Program-made: the position numbers and the translations under genes
Notes under the pieces: model-generated
What the model saw: only the letters and a program-made list of their open reading frames with translations
What the model was told of the DNA's origin: nothing
Database searches by the model: none
IMG/VR virus record: IMGVR_UViG_2728369187_000006
Coordinates: 1 to 20,975 of that record
Length of the DNA: 20,975 bases
Reading direction: 5' to 3' (one strand)
Origin: a virus
Taxonomy: Duplodnaviria; Heunggongvirae; Uroviricota; Caudoviricetes
In this document: one piece after another, positions 3,297-13,741 of the stretch
How positions within the stretch are numbered: position 1 is the first letter of the stretch
Layout: each line of letters begins with the position of its first letter

Positions 3297-3647
3297 TTAC
3301 TTCAGCCGTTCACGAGCCGTCTTCGTCTTATGACACGGCCAGCACAGGCTCTGCAGATTGCTGTCTGAATCTGTGCCGCCATGCGCTTTAGGAATGATGT
3401 GGTCAACGGTTTTCGCCTCACGCACCACACCAGCACGCAGACATAACTGACATAAACCTTTGTCACGCTTCAGGACACGCACGCGGATACCGTCCCACTT
3501 CGAACCATAACCGCGCTGATGACGGGATTGTCCTGGCTTGTATTGTTTCCAGCCTTCGCTTTTGTGGCTTTCACAATAGCCTGACGGATCAGTGGTGGTT
3601 TGGCGGCAGCCGCGAACGCGGCAGGCTTTTGGGGTTCGTGGGGGCAT
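3297..3647 (-). CDS. HNH endonuclease (terminase-associated)
   Basis: 116-aa ORF with cysteine pairs and an HNH core (VDHIIPKAHGGTDSDSNLQSLCWPCHKTKT), directly upstream of terS as in HK97-like packaging modules. Confidence 0.85.
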   Translation of the reverse strand: MPPRTPKACRVRGCRQTTTDPSGYCESHKSEGWKQYKPGQSRHQRGYGSKWDGIRVRVLKRDKGLCQLCLRAGVVREAKTVDHIIPKAHGGTDSDSNLQSLCWPCHKTKTARERLK

Positions 3648-3897
3648 AAAACCTCCAATGGTTGAAAGGTGATAGTCCGATAATTAGGCTACTGCGTGCC
3701 ATATTTAACACAACAGCTGAATATTAGGTGCTGATGGTTTACCTGCTCATTTATACAAATAATATATAACTAATCGATAATTTTTTGTATTTCACCTAGA
3801 GTCCTAAGGTTTCACCATTCTGGTCCTTCCATACAATCTAAAAAAATAATAATGTAGACATCGCCGTAATTATGCGGTTTATACCCATAGGTGATTT

Positions 3898-4182
3898 ATG
3901 CCAGAAGTTACAGGTTCTCTCGAAAAAGGATTCGAGATCAAAGAAACTATCTCTGAATTGGTATTTAACCAAGAGGGTTTGGTTATTGACCATTCAGTAC
4001 AGGTTGATGGTGTTACGCATCGTATCGTCAAATATGACAATAATGGTAGCGTCGCCATCCGCTATGATACTGATACAGGTAGCAATTTTTCGCTATCACT
4101 GAACAATGTAAAACTCAAAATGACTGACAACAATGATCCTAAGAATACAGTAACTGCTACGTTCTCAAGGAACGATGGCTAA
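3898..4182 (+). CDS. Hypothetical small protein (moron candidate), opposite strand to the surrounding late genes
   Basis: 94-aa ORF in a visibly AT-rich island, with AGGTGA 3 nt before the ATG and an intrinsic terminator just downstream. No family recognised. Confidence 0.5.
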   Translation: MPEVTGSLEKGFEIKETISELVFNQEGLVIDHSVQVDGVTHRIVKYDNNGSVAIRYDTDTGSNFSLSLNNVKLKMTDNNDPKNTVTATFSRNDG

Positions 4183-4188
4183 TGACAA

Positions 4189-4215
4189 GGGGCGCTTCGG
4201 CGCCCTTTTATCTTA
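4189..4215 (+). terminator. Rho-independent terminator after the moron ORF
   Basis: GC stem GGGCGC-TTCG-GCGCCC followed by TTTTATCTTATT, read directly from the sequence. Confidence 0.7.
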
Positions 4216-4297
4216 TTCAAACCTCAACATAAATTACAATAAATAAGATGCATAGGTTATTATCAAGCGACTTAACCATTCTGGACTTAATTGTTTC

Positions 4298-4558
4298 TCA
4301 TCTTAATTCCATAGAGTGATTTTCTATTTTACGTATATCAGCCTTATCTCGATTGCATTGTCCAAGGGCTGATAACAGACTCACATTTAAATTAAAACTG
4401 GCCCCATATGTCAGCGGTTCTGGAATAACTGGTTGTGGGGTTTCAGCGGTCAGACTCACCGGTAGTGGTATCGCCGGAACTTGTACGTAAACTGTCCGCG
4501 AACTTCCGCAACCGGTCAGCAGCGGCAGCAGGCACAGGACGTGAAGCACAATCATCAT
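4298..4558 (-). CDS. Rz1: Rz1-like o-spanin lipoprotein, overlapping the 3' part of Rz in another frame
   Basis: Internal start (MMIVLHVLCLLPLLTGCGSS...) gives a signal peptide with lipobox LTGC and a proline-rich mature part, in the +1 frame relative to Rz. Start codon choice is uncertain. Confidence 0.55.
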   Translation of the reverse strand: MMIVLHVLCLLPLLTGCGSSRTVYVQVPAIPLPVSLTAETPQPVIPEPLTYGASFNLNVSLLSALGQCNRDKADIRKIENHSMELR

Positions 4559-4835
4559 CCGCAACAGCCACTTTGATATCTTCCTGGGTTCTCTGTGACT
4601 CCAGTGCGATCTGCTGTTTTGCATGCTGGTTAGCCTCCAGAACTGTATTGATGATTTGCATTGATTGCAGGCCGTTATTAGTAATGGCAGTTGCTGATTC
4701 AGCATTTCGTACAGCCTCATCAGCGCGTTTCTTTTCGTGCTGATATTTGCTGTAGTAGTGGTTGGCAGACCAGATAAAAGAACCAATGACAGTAACGAAG
4801 AATGCAGCGATAACCAGCTTATAGCTCAACTTCAT
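4443..4835 (-). CDS. Rz: Rz-like i-spanin
   Basis: 130 aa with an N-terminal TM segment (LVIAAFFVTVIGSFIW) and a charged, coiled-coil-like periplasmic part, immediately downstream of the endolysin. Confidence 0.75.
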   Translation of the reverse strand: MKLSYKLVIAAFFVTVIGSFIWSANHYYSKYQHEKKRADEAVRNAESATAITNNGLQSMQIINTVLEANQHAKQQIALESQRTQEDIKVAVADDDCASRPVPAAAADRLRKFADSLRTSSGDTTTGESDR

Positions 4836-5904: not shown

Positions 5905-7695
5905 ATGAGCACAGAATTAAAACTAAAGAAAATTATGGCATCGTCTAAAATTGAGCCATTTATTAGACATATTCGTTTTCCTTTTTTTAAAAACCTTGCA
6001 GAGGGTAGCAAGATTGATTTTGAGTATCCAATTACAGCATTAGTTGGTCAAAACGGAACCAATAAAAGTTCTGTTTTAAGAGCCCTATTCGGTTCTCCAA
6101 ACAACTATTCTCTGGGTAGCTTATGGTTTTCTACAGATGTAGATGAGATTAAAGATGGTGGTCGTTCTAGATTTATTTATGGATATTATGACAAAGCTAC
6201 TGATTCAATTGTTGAAGTAATTAAAACTCGAATCTCTAAAGAAAATGATCCTGATTACTGGGAACCATCCAGACCATTAAAATCCGACAACATGGCTCCA
6301 ATGCCTAGTACAAAAATCTCAACCAATCAACTAAGGACTAGGTGGAAAGCTATTGACAAAAATGTAATATATTTAGATTTCAGAGCAACTATCAGTGCAT
6401 TTGATAAGTTCTTTTATCACTCTGATTTTCATACATACCCTAAGAAAGATTATCTTAGAAAACGCAGTCAGATGCTAAAAGACATTATAGATAACGATCT
6501 TAAAAAATATCAACCTCATAAAGGAAAAAAAGACAAGCTATTTGTTAACACTTTATTAGAAAAAAGTAAGGTAGAGGCAATCAGCAAGATTTTAGGTCGC
6601 AAATACACAAGCATCCGCCTTATTGAACATAGCTTATTCACTAATGACAAAGCTCCCACAATTATTCTTCAATCAGAAAACTTAAAATATTCTGAAGCTT
6701 TCGCAGGCAGTGGGGAATTTGCTGTATCTATATTAGTGCATAAACTAATGGATAGCCCTGATGCATCTTTAATTCTGCTAGATGAACCTGAAGTATCACT
6801 TCACCCTTCTGCTCAATGTCAATTGATGGAATTTTTATCAGAACAAGCACTTAAAAAGAAACATCAAATTGTCATATCCACACATTCATCAACAATAGTA
6901 AAAGACTTGCCTAAAAATGCCATAAAATTATTCTGTCTGAATGATAAAATAGGAAAGGTTGATGTTCTTCAAAATGTCAGCCCAGAAGAATCTTTCTTTA
7001 TTCTTGGTGAACGCATTGATAAAAGAACCGTTATTGTAGAAGATCGGTTAGCGAAGAGGTTTGTAGAAAAGGCGCTTAAAGCGGGTGGTGAAGCATTATT
7101 AAACTCCTTCGAAGTAAAACATGTTCCTGGAGGAGCGGGAAGTATTCTTCAAACTTTGGCTGTGCCTTTATGTGTTGCCAATGTTAAAAACGTTATTTTC
7201 TTATTAGATGGTGACCAATCGAGAACTGATGATTATCCAACTTCTGATTCCATACCAGAAAATCAAAACACAAACCTTCAAAACATCATAAAAGAAATAA
7301 CCAATCAAGATATAAAATTTAGTTGTGATGGTTCTAATGGCTCATCAAATAACAATCAAAAATACAAAATGCAAAGAAATTTTATCGATTTCATCCACGA
7401 TAAAATTGCTTTTCTTCCTGTTTATACTCCTGAAGCATTTCTTATTGAGAATGTTCATGGTGATTATAAAGAATATAAAGATCAAATCCCCAAAAACATT
7501 CAAGATGCTAAAGAAATCACCAAAGAACTTTGTAAGTTAGACACAGGGTTGGAAAACGTTACCAGTGACGATATCTTTGAAACACAAATCAGAATTCTTA
7601 ATAAAATACCAAATAATCATGAAGTGTTAACAAAAACTCGAGAGTTGCTGCAAATCTTTTTAGATAATGATACTATCAGACCAAGAGTGAGGTAG
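5905..7695 (+). CDS. OLD-family-like ABC ATPase with putative C-terminal TOPRIM nuclease domain (cargo gene 1)
   Basis: 596 aa. Variant Walker A (ALVGQNGTNKSSVLRAL), Walker B with LHP (SLILLDEPEVSLHPSAQ) typical of AAA_21/OLD ATPases, then TOPRIM-like motifs (TVIVEDRLAKRFVE, glycine-rich PGGAGS, DxD-like FLLDGDQ). AT-rich. Family assignment is by eye, not by HMM. Start may instead be ATG 5935. Confidence 0.7.
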   Translation: MSTELKLKKIMASSKIEPFIRHIRFPFFKNLAEGSKIDFEYPITALVGQNGTNKSSVLRALFGSPNNYSLGSLWFSTDVDEIKDGGRSRFIYGYYDKATDSIVEVIKTRISKENDPDYWEPSRPLKSDNMAPMPSTKISTNQLRTRWKAIDKNVIYLDFRATISAFDKFFYHSDFHTYPKKDYLRKRSQMLKDIIDNDLKKYQPHKGKKDKLFVNTLLEKSKVEAISKILGRKYTSIRLIEHSLFTNDKAPTIILQSENLKYSEAFAGSGEFAVSILVHKLMDSPDASLILLDEPEVSLHPSAQCQLMEFLSEQALKKKHQIVISTHSSTIVKDLPKNAIKLFCLNDKIGKVDVLQNVSPEESFFILGERIDKRTVIVEDRLAKRFVEKALKAGGEALLNSFEVKHVPGGAGSILQTLAVPLCVANVKNVIFLLDGDQSRTDDYPTSDSIPENQNTNLQNIIKEITNQDIKFSCDGSNGSSNNNQKYKMQRNFIDFIHDKIAFLPVYTPEAFLIENVHGDYKEYKDQIPKNIQDAKEITKELCKLDTGLENVTSDDIFETQIRILNKIPNNHEVLTKTRELLQIFLDNDTIRPRVR

Positions 7696-7698
7696 ATA

Positions 7699-8739
7699 AT
7701 GGCTAAAAAGATACACGTTTACGATTTCTTTTCCGGCTGCGGCGGAACCAGTGTAGGCCTAAAAGCGGTGGGAATGGAAATTATTTTCGGTTTAGATATT
7801 GATCTAGACTCCGCTAACACCTTTAAAATGAATAATCCATTTGCACATTTTATCAATGGTGATATCAAAGATACACACGTTGAGGAAATTAAGCATCTGG
7901 TTTGTGCGTCAACACAAAGCAAAGCTCTAACCCTATTTTGTGGTTGTGCTCCATGTCAACCATTCTCGAAACAAAATAAAATACGGAACGAGGATGATCC
8001 GAGAAAAGATCTGCTTACTGAGTTTGCACGGTTTGTCTCTTATTATACGCCAGACTTTGTACTGGTAGAGAATGTACCAGGAATCCAAAATGTCGATATT
8101 AACAATGGAAATTTCCAGAAATTTCTTGAGGTTTTAGCACATCATCACTACAACGTTGATTTTGGTGTGATTCCTGCGTTGTGGTTCGGGGTTCCTCAAA
8201 CACGTGAACGTTTTGTTTTACTGGCGTCAAAACACACGAATATTAAGCTTCCATCACAAACTCATGATGGATTAAAAACTCCGTATGCAACTGTCAGAGA
8301 CTGGATCGGCGGATTACCTCCTATTGCTGCCGGTGAAACTCATAAAGATGTTATGGATCATACAGCAGCCAAACTATCTGATCTAAATATTAAACGTATT
8401 AAAGCGACTCCTGAAGGAAAAGGTAGAGAATCTTGGCCTGAAGAACTTATACTAAAATGCCATAAAAAATATAAAGGGCATACTGATGTTTATGGACGGC
8501 TTTCTTGGGACAAACCAGCAAGTGGATTAACAACTAGATGTATAAGCTATTCGAATGGACGTTTCGGACATCCAGAGCAAGATAGGGCTATTTCTGTTAG
8601 AGAGGCTGCGTTATTACAGACTTTCCCATTAGACTATTCCTTCACAGGCTCTTTAGTCTCGAAAGCCAAACAGATAGGGAATGCAGTCCCTCCCAAGATG
8701 GCTGAAGCTCTTGGAAGGGCTATCATCGCATCACTTTAA
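7699..8739 (+). CDS. DNA (cytosine-5)-methyltransferase (cargo gene 2)
   Basis: 346 aa with canonical m5C motifs: I (FSGCGG), IV (PCQPFS), VI (ENVPG), VIII (QTRERF), X (GNAVPP). Starts 4 nt after the upstream stop, with GAGG inside the upstream gene end, so likely translationally coupled. Confidence 0.9.
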   Translation: MAKKIHVYDFFSGCGGTSVGLKAVGMEIIFGLDIDLDSANTFKMNNPFAHFINGDIKDTHVEEIKHLVCASTQSKALTLFCGCAPCQPFSKQNKIRNEDDPRKDLLTEFARFVSYYTPDFVLVENVPGIQNVDINNGNFQKFLEVLAHHHYNVDFGVIPALWFGVPQTRERFVLLASKHTNIKLPSQTHDGLKTPYATVRDWIGGLPPIAAGETHKDVMDHTAAKLSDLNIKRIKATPEGKGRESWPEELILKCHKKYKGHTDVYGRLSWDKPASGLTTRCISYSNGRFGHPEQDRAISVREAALLQTFPLDYSFTGSLVSKAKQIGNAVPPKMAEALGRAIIASL

Positions 8740-12309: not shown

Positions 12310-12803
12310 TAAGCCCCCACGTAATTCCCTGACAGATACCACTCTTCACCCGATGCAGCGCGCTTGCTGCTTTTCCGTAAGCACCGCTCACGACGCGCCA
12401 GAAAATTGTTTCGTTCTGGCTGGGAGTGGCTTTCACGGAATGCCGCCATCCACACGGTTGCAGCACGACGGTATAAGCCCCTGGACTCCAGTTCTTCAGC
12501 CTGGCGGGTCAGGCACAAAATCACCCGGTGATCGTTAGTGCCGACATAGAAATTGCGCACAGGTCTGGTTTCACGAACTGGTTGTGGTTCCGGCTCCTGC
12601 GCTCTCTCAGTCAGGCGCGGGAAATGTCTGCGTGTATCCCCTTCACAACGGTGAGCCACACGCCCACTCTGACGTAACTTGCTTGCTGACTGCAGAACGC
12701 GCTGCCGTGAGTAACCTGCAAAAGCATCCGCAATGTCTCCGGAAGTACACCCCGGATGGGCTTCAATGAATTTCTGAACGTCATTTAACAGACTCATGAT
12801 CAC
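12309..12803 (-). CDS. Hypothetical regulator with PerC-like C-terminal motif
   Basis: 164 aa. C-terminal AEELESRGLYRRAATVWMAAF...RRERCLRK resembles PerC-family activators from memory. Occupies the slot where lambda has the helicase loader P. ATGA overlap with the upstream initiator gene. Confidence 0.5.
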   Translation of the reverse strand: MIMSLLNDVQKFIEAHPGCTSGDIADAFAGYSRQRVLQSASKLRQSGRVAHRCEGDTRRHFPRLTERAQEPEPQPVRETRPVRNFYVGTNDHRVILCLTRQAEELESRGLYRRAATVWMAAFRESHSQPERNNFLARRERCLRKSSKRAASGEEWYLSGNYVGA

Positions 12804-13741
12804 CCCCTGAATCCTGCCGGGATCTGGCTGTAGTCCACGTTGTCGTAACTGGATTTGAAGTACGGGTCTTCGCGTTTTTCGGTGTACGTGCTTACGGACG
12901 GCGATAAGCGCAGGGAAAGCTCATCCCATTTTTCCCGCAGCTTCGACGGGCTGAGCACGTTACGGCACCAGAACGGATCGCGGCTGACGCGGCTGTACAT
13001 CTCGCAGATTTGTTTGTGAGTACGACCATCCTGCACACACATCAGGCGAATTTCGTTTGCCCAGGCTGTCCAGTTCGGTTCTTTGGGACGAACCACCTCG
13101 CCGTCACATTCGGCAGCCTGCTCGTACAGGGCGATGATTTTTTTCCAGAGCCACTGTGCGCAGGTCAAATCATCCTGCGTTCCCCACTGGCGCTTTTTAG
13201 GGCTGAATACAACCGCATCAGGATGGCGAGTTAAAAAATCCTGTTCAGCCGTCTGCGTGTCCGGTTGCGAAGCGTCCGGACGAGAAGGTTTTTTATCTGA
13301 CGGATCATGTTTTGATTTTACTGACGGATCCCCGCCAGATTCTGACGGGTGAAAACCCGCTTTTTTGCCAGATTTCGACGCATCAAATTTTGACGGGTCA
13401 GATTTTGATGCGTCAGATTTTGACGGGTCAGAATCTGACAGTTGAGAAAATGCCGCTGCCTGAAGCTTCACAACGTTAAGCTGATAAACATTCGACGCAT
13501 TGCGGTTACCCTGGCGACGCGCCTTACGCGTTAACCAGCCTTCTGCTTCCAGCCGTGCGATAGCCGTTCTGACGGTACTCATCCCCGCGCCAATCTGACG
13601 GGCAATGGTTTCAATTGATGGCCAGCACACACCTTCGTCATTACTGAAATCAGCCAGGCGGGCCATAATTGCCACGCTGGATAATTTCATGCCTGACGCT
13701 GCGCAACCATCCCATACATAGCCGGTTAATTTAGTGCTCAT
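12800..13741 (-). CDS. Replication initiator protein (O-like; N-terminal HTH, internal iteron-encoded linker)
   Basis: 313 aa. N-terminal winged-helix-like segment (VAIMARLADFSNDEGVCWPSIETIARQIGAGMSTVRTAIARLEAEGWL). Central repetitive linker (DPSKSDASKSDPSKFDASKS) is encoded by the iteron repeats, as in lambda O. Confidence 0.75.
   Translation of the reverse strand: MSTKLTGYVWDGCAASGMKLSSVAIMARLADFSNDEGVCWPSIETIARQIGAGMSTVRTAIARLEAEGWLTRKARRQGNRNASNVYQLNVVKLQAAAFSQLSDSDPSKSDASKSDPSKFDASKSGKKAGFHPSESGGDPSVKSKHDPSDKKPSRPDASQPDTQTAEQDFLTRHPDAVVFSPKKRQWGTQDDLTCAQWLWKKIIALYEQAAECDGEVVRPKEPNWTAWANEIRLMCVQDGRTHKQICEMYSRVSRDPFWCRNVLSPSKLREKWDELSLRLSPSVSTYTEKREDPYFKSSYDNVDYSQIPAGFRG
13290..13440. repeat. 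Iteron-like direct repeats (candidate phage origin) inside the initiator gene
   Basis: About eight copies of a (T/A)YTGACGG-like unit at 14-24 bp spacing (for example tctgacgg at 13296, 13341; tttgacgg at 13389, 13419), read directly. Confidence 0.65.

Follow-up and report, generated by a model that had tools for sequence, protein, structure and literature searches.

Results

The DNA analyzed here, a 20,975-nt stretch of IMG/VR record IMGVR_UViG_2728369187_000006 (hereafter the window; coordinates are window positions unless a contig label is given), is an SfV/SfIV-like, HK97-headed prophage of E. coli. This study concerns an AT-rich island that lies between the HNH endonuclease gene and the spanin genes of the prophage, together with the gene for a 94-amino-acid (aa) protein that the island carries. 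The flanks of the island are ~89-91% identical to Shigella phages SfIV and SfV (90.7% for the SfIV match), and an identical prophage is present in E. coli C4 (NZ_CP010121), for which RefSeq annotates an HK97-type head, a sheathed tail, a P27-family small terminase, HNH, a lambda-family holin, a GH24 endolysin, and spanins. On the left, the island is adjoined by the HNH gene (3297..3647, minus strand; Pfam HNH, E = 1e-16, and the RefSeq annotation of the C4 prophage), beyond which lie the genes for the small and large terminase subunits. On the right are the overlapping spanin genes (4298..4835, minus strand), with Rz1/LysC at 4298-4624 as annotated and Rz (DUF2570) at 4443-4835; Rz1/LysC is not nested within Rz but only overlaps it, and runs 145 nt beyond the Rz stop. 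When GC content was measured in 200-nt windows, it dropped to 0.32-0.42 over 3600-4400, compared with 0.53-0.59 to the left. The slot between the two flanking genes (3648-4297) has a GC content of 0.37, the open reading frame (ORF) within it 0.39, and the whole window 0.48. An AT-rich island interrupting the minus-strand late genes, as described in the original prediction, was thus confirmed: its composition deviates from that of the flanks in the way expected of a moron, and its plus-strand ORF sits between the minus-strand HNH and spanin genes, opposing the late operon.

The gene in the island (3898..4182, plus strand) encodes a soluble orphan protein of 94 aa (10.4 kDa, isoelectric point [pI] 4.8) and was identified from the ORF list, its homologues, and a comparison of synonymous with non-synonymous change. 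A word-indexed search of 5.8 billion proteins recovered only the protein's own cluster (P0001, 99% identical to the window protein). When 1.84 billion cluster representatives were searched exhaustively with phmmer, P0002 emerged as a further member (93 aa; identity of 46% according to phmmer and 45% elsewhere; E = 6e-13), and P0008 (94 aa, aligned at 57% identity) was recovered with a profile. Among 5.8 billion proteins, the family is therefore made up of three clusters at 90% identity, from E. coli, Klebsiella pneumoniae, and one unassigned source. No further relatives were found by tblastn in phage and plasmid collections, and no further copies in scans of IMG/VR and of GTDB genomes; a scan of JGI metagenomes yielded one identical copy, on contig Ga0192249_1234 (L034). 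P0002 is encoded by K. pneumoniae prophages (locus L010) that have a GH19-type endolysin and different holins, and P0008 by a contig (L019) with yet another lysis cassette. In all three cases the gene is oriented against the late genes and is placed tail-to-tail with the spanin genes, an arrangement kept in four different lysis-cassette backgrounds, and has a GC content of 39-40% in phage backgrounds of ~50%. By the Nei-Gojobori method, the proportion of synonymous differences (pS) between family members was 0.72-0.90 (saturated) and that of non-synonymous differences (pN) 0.24-0.39, giving pN/pS of 0.29-0.52; moreover, the start, the stop, and the length (93-94 codons) are conserved in all members. 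Given that pS is saturated, that pN is lower, and that start, stop, and length have been kept, these sequence comparisons strongly indicate that the gene is real and under purifying selection. Although very rare, the family is kept under selection, and its position never varies between the phages of E. coli and those of Klebsiella.

Conservation extends beyond the ORF. As determined by blastn, DNA similarity between the window and L019 covers 3826-4168, comprising a 72-nt leader and the ORF. The leader (3826..3897, plus strand), in which the alignment begins exactly at 3826 (L019 529), is presumed to contain the promoter and the 5′ untranslated region, and a three-way alignment revealed that the motifs TAATGTA and GCCG.TAT/AAT are common to all three loci. 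When the conserved leader was subjected to consensus folding, neither RNA structure nor covariation was detected, and a search of 3500-4500 against Rfam gave no match. Upstream of the ORF, the sole match to the sigma-70 consensus (TATACA-18-GATAAT, 9/12; 3752..3781, plus strand) is weak and lies outside the conserved block. The ribosome binding site (RBS) that had been predicted for the ORF was found as the Shine-Dalgarno sequence AGGTGAT (3889..3895, plus strand; aligned spacing to the ATG of 6 nt), which is complementary to the 3′ end of 16S rRNA, and similar motifs occur at the same place in L019 and L010. The strong intrinsic terminator was also borne out. This Rho-independent terminator (4187..4212, plus strand) consists of a hairpin at 4187-4208, with a 9-bp GC-rich stem containing 6 G-C pairs, followed by the T tract TTTTATCTT; its free energy is -15.8 kcal/mol (z = -3.7), and the reverse strand forms the same hairpin without a T run. 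Homologous hairpins with a GGCGC..GCGCC core are located 4-8 nt past the stop codon in L019 and L010, so that the terminator, which a moron is expected to bring with it, is conserved in both homologues. Since leader, ORF, and terminator are conserved together, the alignments indicate that these three elements form a unit, and the unit has the anatomy of a moron under the Juhala/Hendrix definition (Cumby et al. 2012, PMC3594210).

The extent of the island was defined by comparison with related prophages. Blastn homology with six of these ends at 3647-3660, at the HNH start codon, and resumes at 4323-4352, in the last codons of Rz1/LysC. From these breakpoints and the junction sequences, the variable cargo segment of the HNH/Rz1 slot was placed at 3648..4322; the exchanged segment (~3648-4322) brings along the HNH RBS and the C-terminal tail of Rz1 (its last ~8 codons). 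Among relatives these last ~8 Rz1/LysC codons vary, each cargo supplying its own Rz1 tail, because the recombination junction of the slot falls inside the gene. When 5426 complete E. coli genomes were searched, the flanks were carried by 1207 (about a fifth) and the 661-bp island by 2; no partial matches to 3648-4330 were found in these genomes even at blastn sensitivity, and no phage record matched the island. Across the flank-bearing genomes, the span from HNH to the endolysin ranged from 939 bp, when the slot is empty, to 2104 bp; in phage SfV it is also 939 bp. The empty slot of E. coli GPEC874 (L002) leaves 26 bp between HNH and Rz1/LysC, compared with 650 bp in the window. The original proposal of a moron between the spanin and HNH/terminase genes was therefore upheld, in that extra DNA of foreign composition, with a terminator of its own, separates genes that are adjacent in related phages. 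Elsewhere, the slot is filled by unrelated cargos on either strand, including a YodC-family protein, a GrlR-family regulator, DUF2513, a trypsin-like peptidase, and assorted hypothetical proteins, and the same replacement pattern between HNH and spanin was found in Klebsiella phages. Given that the slot is empty or differently filled across relatives, the HNH/spanin site is a hypervariable cargo hotspot, and the island in the window is one rare filling of it.

Two further observations were made on this slot. An 11-nt sequence, TATTTCACCTA, in the left non-coding part of the window island (3787-3797) matches L006 at ~1323-1333, where it spans the lysC stop of another slot variant; this match could be left over from a former boundary of the slot, or it could be due to chance. 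In the Klebsiella prophages (L010 7538-7858, minus strand), a gene for a 106-aa protein (phrog_10235, E = 4e-27) lies between HNH and the cassette, divergent from the latter. Profile comparison revealed no relation of this gene to the 94-aa family. A search for Klebsiella phages that have the 106-aa gene and lack the cassette yielded none; the whole HNH-spanin interval is replaced in those phages.

Copies of the island from different sources were compared with respect to how it spreads. Five E. coli sources share the island apart from one single-nucleotide polymorphism (D57N); these near-identical copies are therefore uninformative on the direct repeat described below. The metagenome contig L034 (1-2523) shares with the window an identical cassette together with Rz1 and the 3′ half of Rz; at ~4625-4642 of the window, it switches to a different Rz N-terminus, a chitinase-like endolysin of 204 aa, and different holins. 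The left end of L034 corresponds to window position 3829, 3 nt from the conserved left edge of the cassette, and may represent an assembly break at a strain-variable junction. Given the crossover within Rz in L034, and the junctions at the HNH start and at the 3′ end of Rz1, these sequences show that the cassette is transferred from phage to phage along with the 3′ end of the spanin genes, through recombination in the conserved flanking genes.

The island had also been described as bracketed by a 10-bp direct repeat. Exact copies of ACCATTCTGG were found at 3814-3823 and 4275-4284, and the island has no other direct repeat of 10 nt or longer. When one mismatch is allowed, the repeat grows to 13 nt: the left copy, TTCACCATTCTGG (3811..3823), ends 3 nt short of the conserved cassette, and the right copy, TTAACCATTCTGG (4272..4284), falls ~60 nt beyond the terminator, with 13 nt separating it from the Rz1 stop codon. 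The copies thus enclose the ORF cassette, but they do not bracket the island, for the left one lies ~166 bp inside the variable segment. A pattern of presence and absence bounded by the repeat was likewise not observed, the homology of relatives breaking instead at 3647-3660 and 4323-4352. Moreover, the repeat, to which chance odds of roughly 1 in 10 had been assigned, does not exceed chance when taken on its own: when the island was shuffled 2000 times with its dinucleotide content preserved, 26.5% of the shuffled sequences had an exact direct repeat of 10 nt or longer, and 4% had one enclosing the ORF. The 21-kb window contains ~30 other independent pairs of 10-mers within 700 bp of each other. 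No inverted repeats of at least 9 nt were detected in 3648-4330, and no transposase or integrase was found, the 94-aa ORF being the only gene of the island and having no transposase domain. An empty site with one repeat copy was not found in the 5426 E. coli genomes, the predicted empty junction was absent from the viral contigs searched, and the left segment on its own was absent from the viral and genome contigs searched. These combined data suggest that the 10-bp direct repeat is probably fortuitous.

Sequence features of the 94-aa protein are in keeping with the earlier statement that it has no signal peptide and no recognizable family. Its maximum Kyte-Doolittle hydropathy over 19 residues is 0.5 (0.53); it has neither a hydrophobic N-terminus nor a transmembrane segment, and it contains no Cys and no Trp. 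No match was obtained in Pfam, PHROGs, NCBIfam, PADLOC, or PDB; specifically, no Pfam family was recovered for the window protein at E ≤ 0.1, and no family among the PADLOC-DB defence models at E ≤ 1 for any of the three family members. The colicin/pyocin immunity family PF01320 did not match the 94-aa protein or its homologues; only a neighbouring gene in L019 matched it. This neighbour (L019 31-282, minus strand), divergent from the P0008 gene, encodes an 83-aa homologue of colicin/pyocin DNase-immunity proteins (PF01320, E = 1e-21) and appears to be an orphan immunity gene that forms part of the phage cargo. Profile comparison likewise revealed no relation between the 94-aa family and the GrlR-family cargo of the same slot. 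The family has a conserved hairpin motif, VDGV.HR..KYD.NG, and an alternating hydrophobic pattern, which together suggest that the protein is probably all-beta. Homology to beta-propeller or hairpin repeats (NHL, FG-GAP, HYR, YD-like) was also considered, given weak phmmer matches, in multiple stretches, of heterogeneous repeat proteins through HRIVKYDNNGS at E = 1e-6 to 7e-5, and was rejected: the similarity was judged to be at the level of the motif, and no Pfam repeat family (NHL, FG-GAP, YD-like) matched the 94-aa protein.

Other features of the window were noted as well. Another AT-rich moron (5905-8739, plus strand; GC 0.30-0.36) lies between antiterminator Q and the holin and encodes a 596-aa OLD-like ATPase (AAA_15/AAA_21) and a 346-aa type II cytosine-5 DNA methyltransferase. 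The top PADLOC matches of the ATPase were HEC-04 (E = 2e-36) and ATPase-Toprim_I-B, and RefSeq names it 'ATP-dependent nuclease'. From these similarities, it is likely that this moron is a prophage-borne defence or restriction-like module. In the gene for a replication protein with a helix-turn-helix domain (~12800-13741, minus strand), four 15-nt iterons, CAGATTTTGACGGGT, were found at 13369-13432 (period 15, 4.3 copies), with more copies of CTGACGGATC at 13297 and 13321. By its sequence, this array looks like a replication origin within the initiator gene, as in lambda O, where the origin is embedded in the initiator gene.

Discussion

Taken together, these data make it probable that the island is a moron, i.e. 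an independently transcribed accessory cassette in the slot between the lysis and HNH/terminase genes of an SfV/SfIV-like prophage. Given that the cassette opposes the late operon and terminates before Rz1, its own promoter would be expected to drive it in the repressed prophage, as with lambda bor, and not with the late genes. The product would be a small, acidic, soluble cytoplasmic protein, too small and featureless for an enzyme, that would bind and block a partner, benefiting the lysogen or the prophage. From its small size and charge we infer a stoichiometric binder, and overall a binding protein expressed in the lysogen. The immunity homologue beside the P0008 gene, together with the ATPase and methyltransferase of the other moron, points to a protective role, for which superinfection exclusion, anti-phage protection, or toxin immunity would be candidates.

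Several observations weigh against this interpretation. With regard to expression, three promoter-like sites were found when 2.7 would be expected from shuffles, and the conserved leader (3826..3897) has no consistent sigma-70 consensus. With regard to function, scans of the family in Pfam, PHROGs, NCBIfam, and PADLOC returned only sub-threshold noise (phrog_33000, DUF6156, UidC), and a profile search of PDB gave only Cullin-4B at E = 0.7, which is noise. Structure prediction, which had been proposed earlier as a check, did not help: AlphaFold2 gave no confident fold, with a predicted local distance difference test (pLDDT) score of 40 from the single sequence and 39 from a 4-sequence alignment. 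The link to protective neighbours relies on one or two loci. Finally, all three loci of the family have a 10-11-nt direct repeat whose left copy lies at the left edge of the cassette, and this last point leads to a different explanation.

In that explanation, the ~450-bp segment at 3824-4271 is a discrete mobile unit, and the repeat is the scar of a 10-13-bp target duplication or of the integration of a small circle at microhomology. In the window, the left copy ends 3 nt before the edge of homology with L019. L019 and L010 have repeats of their own, of 10-11 nt and of different sequence (ATTGATCTTTC at 523 and 881 in L019; TTTCTTTTAA, of low complexity, at 7923 and 8311 in L010), in which the left copy again sits at this edge and the right copy lies downstream of the ORF. 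When segments were shuffled separately, each coincidence had P < 0.01, with a joint value of ~5e-7, although these values are nominal, the windows having been chosen post hoc. When 18 slot variants were compared, a flanking repeat was found in all three family loci (3/3) but in only 1/15 unrelated cargos, against 18/304 (5.9%) of cross-locus pairs. In addition, the start of the L034 contig at window 3829 falls near the same edge, and small circles formed between promoter/terminator cassettes are known in T4-type phages (PMC2839356). Other evidence argues against a mobile unit. Although the repeats flanking the conserved ends are 10-13 nt long and their left copies abut the edge, the right copies of the three loci are out of register: the one in L019 overlaps the stop codon before the terminator, that in L010 is the T tract of the terminator, and that in the window lies beyond the terminator. 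An in-register test was null for L010 and marginal for L019 (ATTGATC at positions matching the window repeat, P = 0.04). Repeat lengths of 10-11 nt are at the chance level just over the detection threshold; the island has no terminal inverted repeats, transposase, or integrase; and neither an empty site nor the left segment alone was found in the collections searched. The actual boundaries of presence and absence lie elsewhere (3647-3660 and 4323-4352), and the spread that was demonstrated is by recombination in the flanks. We therefore regard a discrete mobile unit as unlikely. A broader version, in which the unit of leader, ORF, and terminator would be a self-contained mobile cassette that independently enters spanin-proximal slots of lambdoid phages, each entry leaving a locus-specific 10-13-bp repeat (e.g. 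through microhomology integration of a mini-circle), seems to us quite unlikely. That flanking repeats are a general trait of the cargo in this slot was rejected, since their frequency in unrelated cargos (1/15) compares with a cross-locus background of 5.9%. The single such case, the YodC-family cargo of E. coli APEC O78 (L004), has an exact 11-nt direct repeat, ATTATTTATCT, at 645-655 and 1141-1151, the left copy of which overlaps the HNH start codon.

The gene might instead act during infection, e.g. against host defence, if, lying no more than ~1 kb from the cos end of the virion DNA, it had a promoter of its own that was active early after DNA entry. The protein is small and acidic (pI 4.8), as are many phage inhibitor proteins. 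The slot adjoins HNH, which in the deposited SfV genome (37,074 bp) is no more than ~60 bp away from the right end, and a leader and terminator of its own would make the gene independent of late transcription. However, the protein has no similarity to known anti-defence proteins or PHROGs, and an orientation against the late operon is classical for morons expressed from the prophage, such as bor (PMC3594210). On balance, a role in the infection phase appears improbable.

The remaining alternatives concern the lysis genes and the coding status of the ORF. If the cassette served the lysis module, its protein or an antisense transcript would modulate the spanin or the timing of lysis. In favour of such a role, the gene is tail-to-tail with Rz/Rz1 in four lysis-cassette backgrounds and is co-inherited with the 3′ ends of Rz1 and Rz; yet physical linkage alone accounts for the co-inheritance, the strong terminator halts transcription at least 90 nt before Rz1, most relatives lyse without the cassette (their slot being empty or holding other cargo), and the protein is cytoplasmic and without a membrane segment. 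Such a role is thus very improbable. The view that the ORF arose by chance in AT-rich junk DNA and has no product has in its favour the lack of a known family and of a confident AlphaFold2 fold, but the counts of pN and pS refute it, as non-synonymous change is 2-3.5 times lower than change at the saturated synonymous sites among homologues of 45-57% identity (three in all) that share start, stop, length, RBS, and terminator.

The moron thus remains the preferred interpretation, and in this sense the island is a well-formed but ordinary moron with an orphan cargo, notable only for the rarity of the family, its positional fidelity, and a hint of discrete mobility. It is mainly through morons that prophages endow their hosts with new traits, among them resistance to serum, exclusion of phages, and immunity to toxins. 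The present data add one more cargo slot, at HNH/spanin, in a prophage group whose flanks are found in 1207 of 5426 E. coli genomes, and they define a 94-aa family of only three clusters among 5.8 billion proteins. Should the protein prove to block phage or toxin, a new small inhibitor would have been identified. Were the repeats scars, they would bear on how morons move and would offer a tractable system in which to ask how these are acquired, which is still unsolved; in the case of a mobile cassette, the 94-aa product would represent a new lysogen-protective or mobility-associated protein fold.

Compared with known systems, the island is not a member of the Bor family, a transposon class, or a defence or immunity family among those tested. 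The Bor protein has a signal peptide and is a lipoprotein of the outer membrane, and lambda bor is expressed from its own promoter in the lysogen. The position of the island is that of lambda bor, as originally predicted: in NC_001416, bor is found 31 nt beyond Rz and on the other strand, and each of the two is a single small gene that directly follows the spanin genes, runs counter to the late genes, and is situated between those for lysis and those for packaging. The likeness is positional only, however, given that the 94-aa protein lacks a signal peptide, lipobox, and Cys and has no similarity to Bor (no Pfam family). Nothing connects the protein with Bor, and an effect on host fitness or virulence, which the original prediction mentioned for morons at this position, is conjectural. 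Prophage orphan bacteriocin immunity genes (PF01320) resemble it in that one of them occupies the same slot beside the P0008 gene and in that both products are small, acidic, and cytoplasmic, whereas the 94-aa protein has no similarity to PF01320 or to any immunity family. In T4-type phages, long conserved promoter/stem-loop repeats (PeSLs) recombine homologously and give rise to mini-circles (Arbiol et al. 2010, PMC2839356). There, as here, ORFan genes in hyperplastic regions are bracketed by regulatory sequences, and PeSLs offer a possible model for repeat-mediated excision and reinsertion; unlike PeSLs, the window repeat is only 10-13 bp long and locus-specific, and its recombination is putative. 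In the same phage group, SfIV carries a moron between Q and the lysis cassette that is also a low-GC island (39%), with flanking transcription signals and cargo associated with an IS1 transposase (PMC3851460); its slot, between Q and the holin, is filled in the window by the ATPase/methyltransferase moron and not by the 94-aa cassette. In architecture, the island resembles lambda bor and the classical morons, such as gene 15 of HK97; with the latter it shares extra DNA between genes that are adjacent in relatives, a deviant GC content, and a terminator of its own. The HK97 gene lies in the tail operon and its product, gp15, is a superinfection-exclusion protein (PMC3594210), whereas the present cassette occupies the slot between lysis and packaging genes, with a putative promoter and a putative function.

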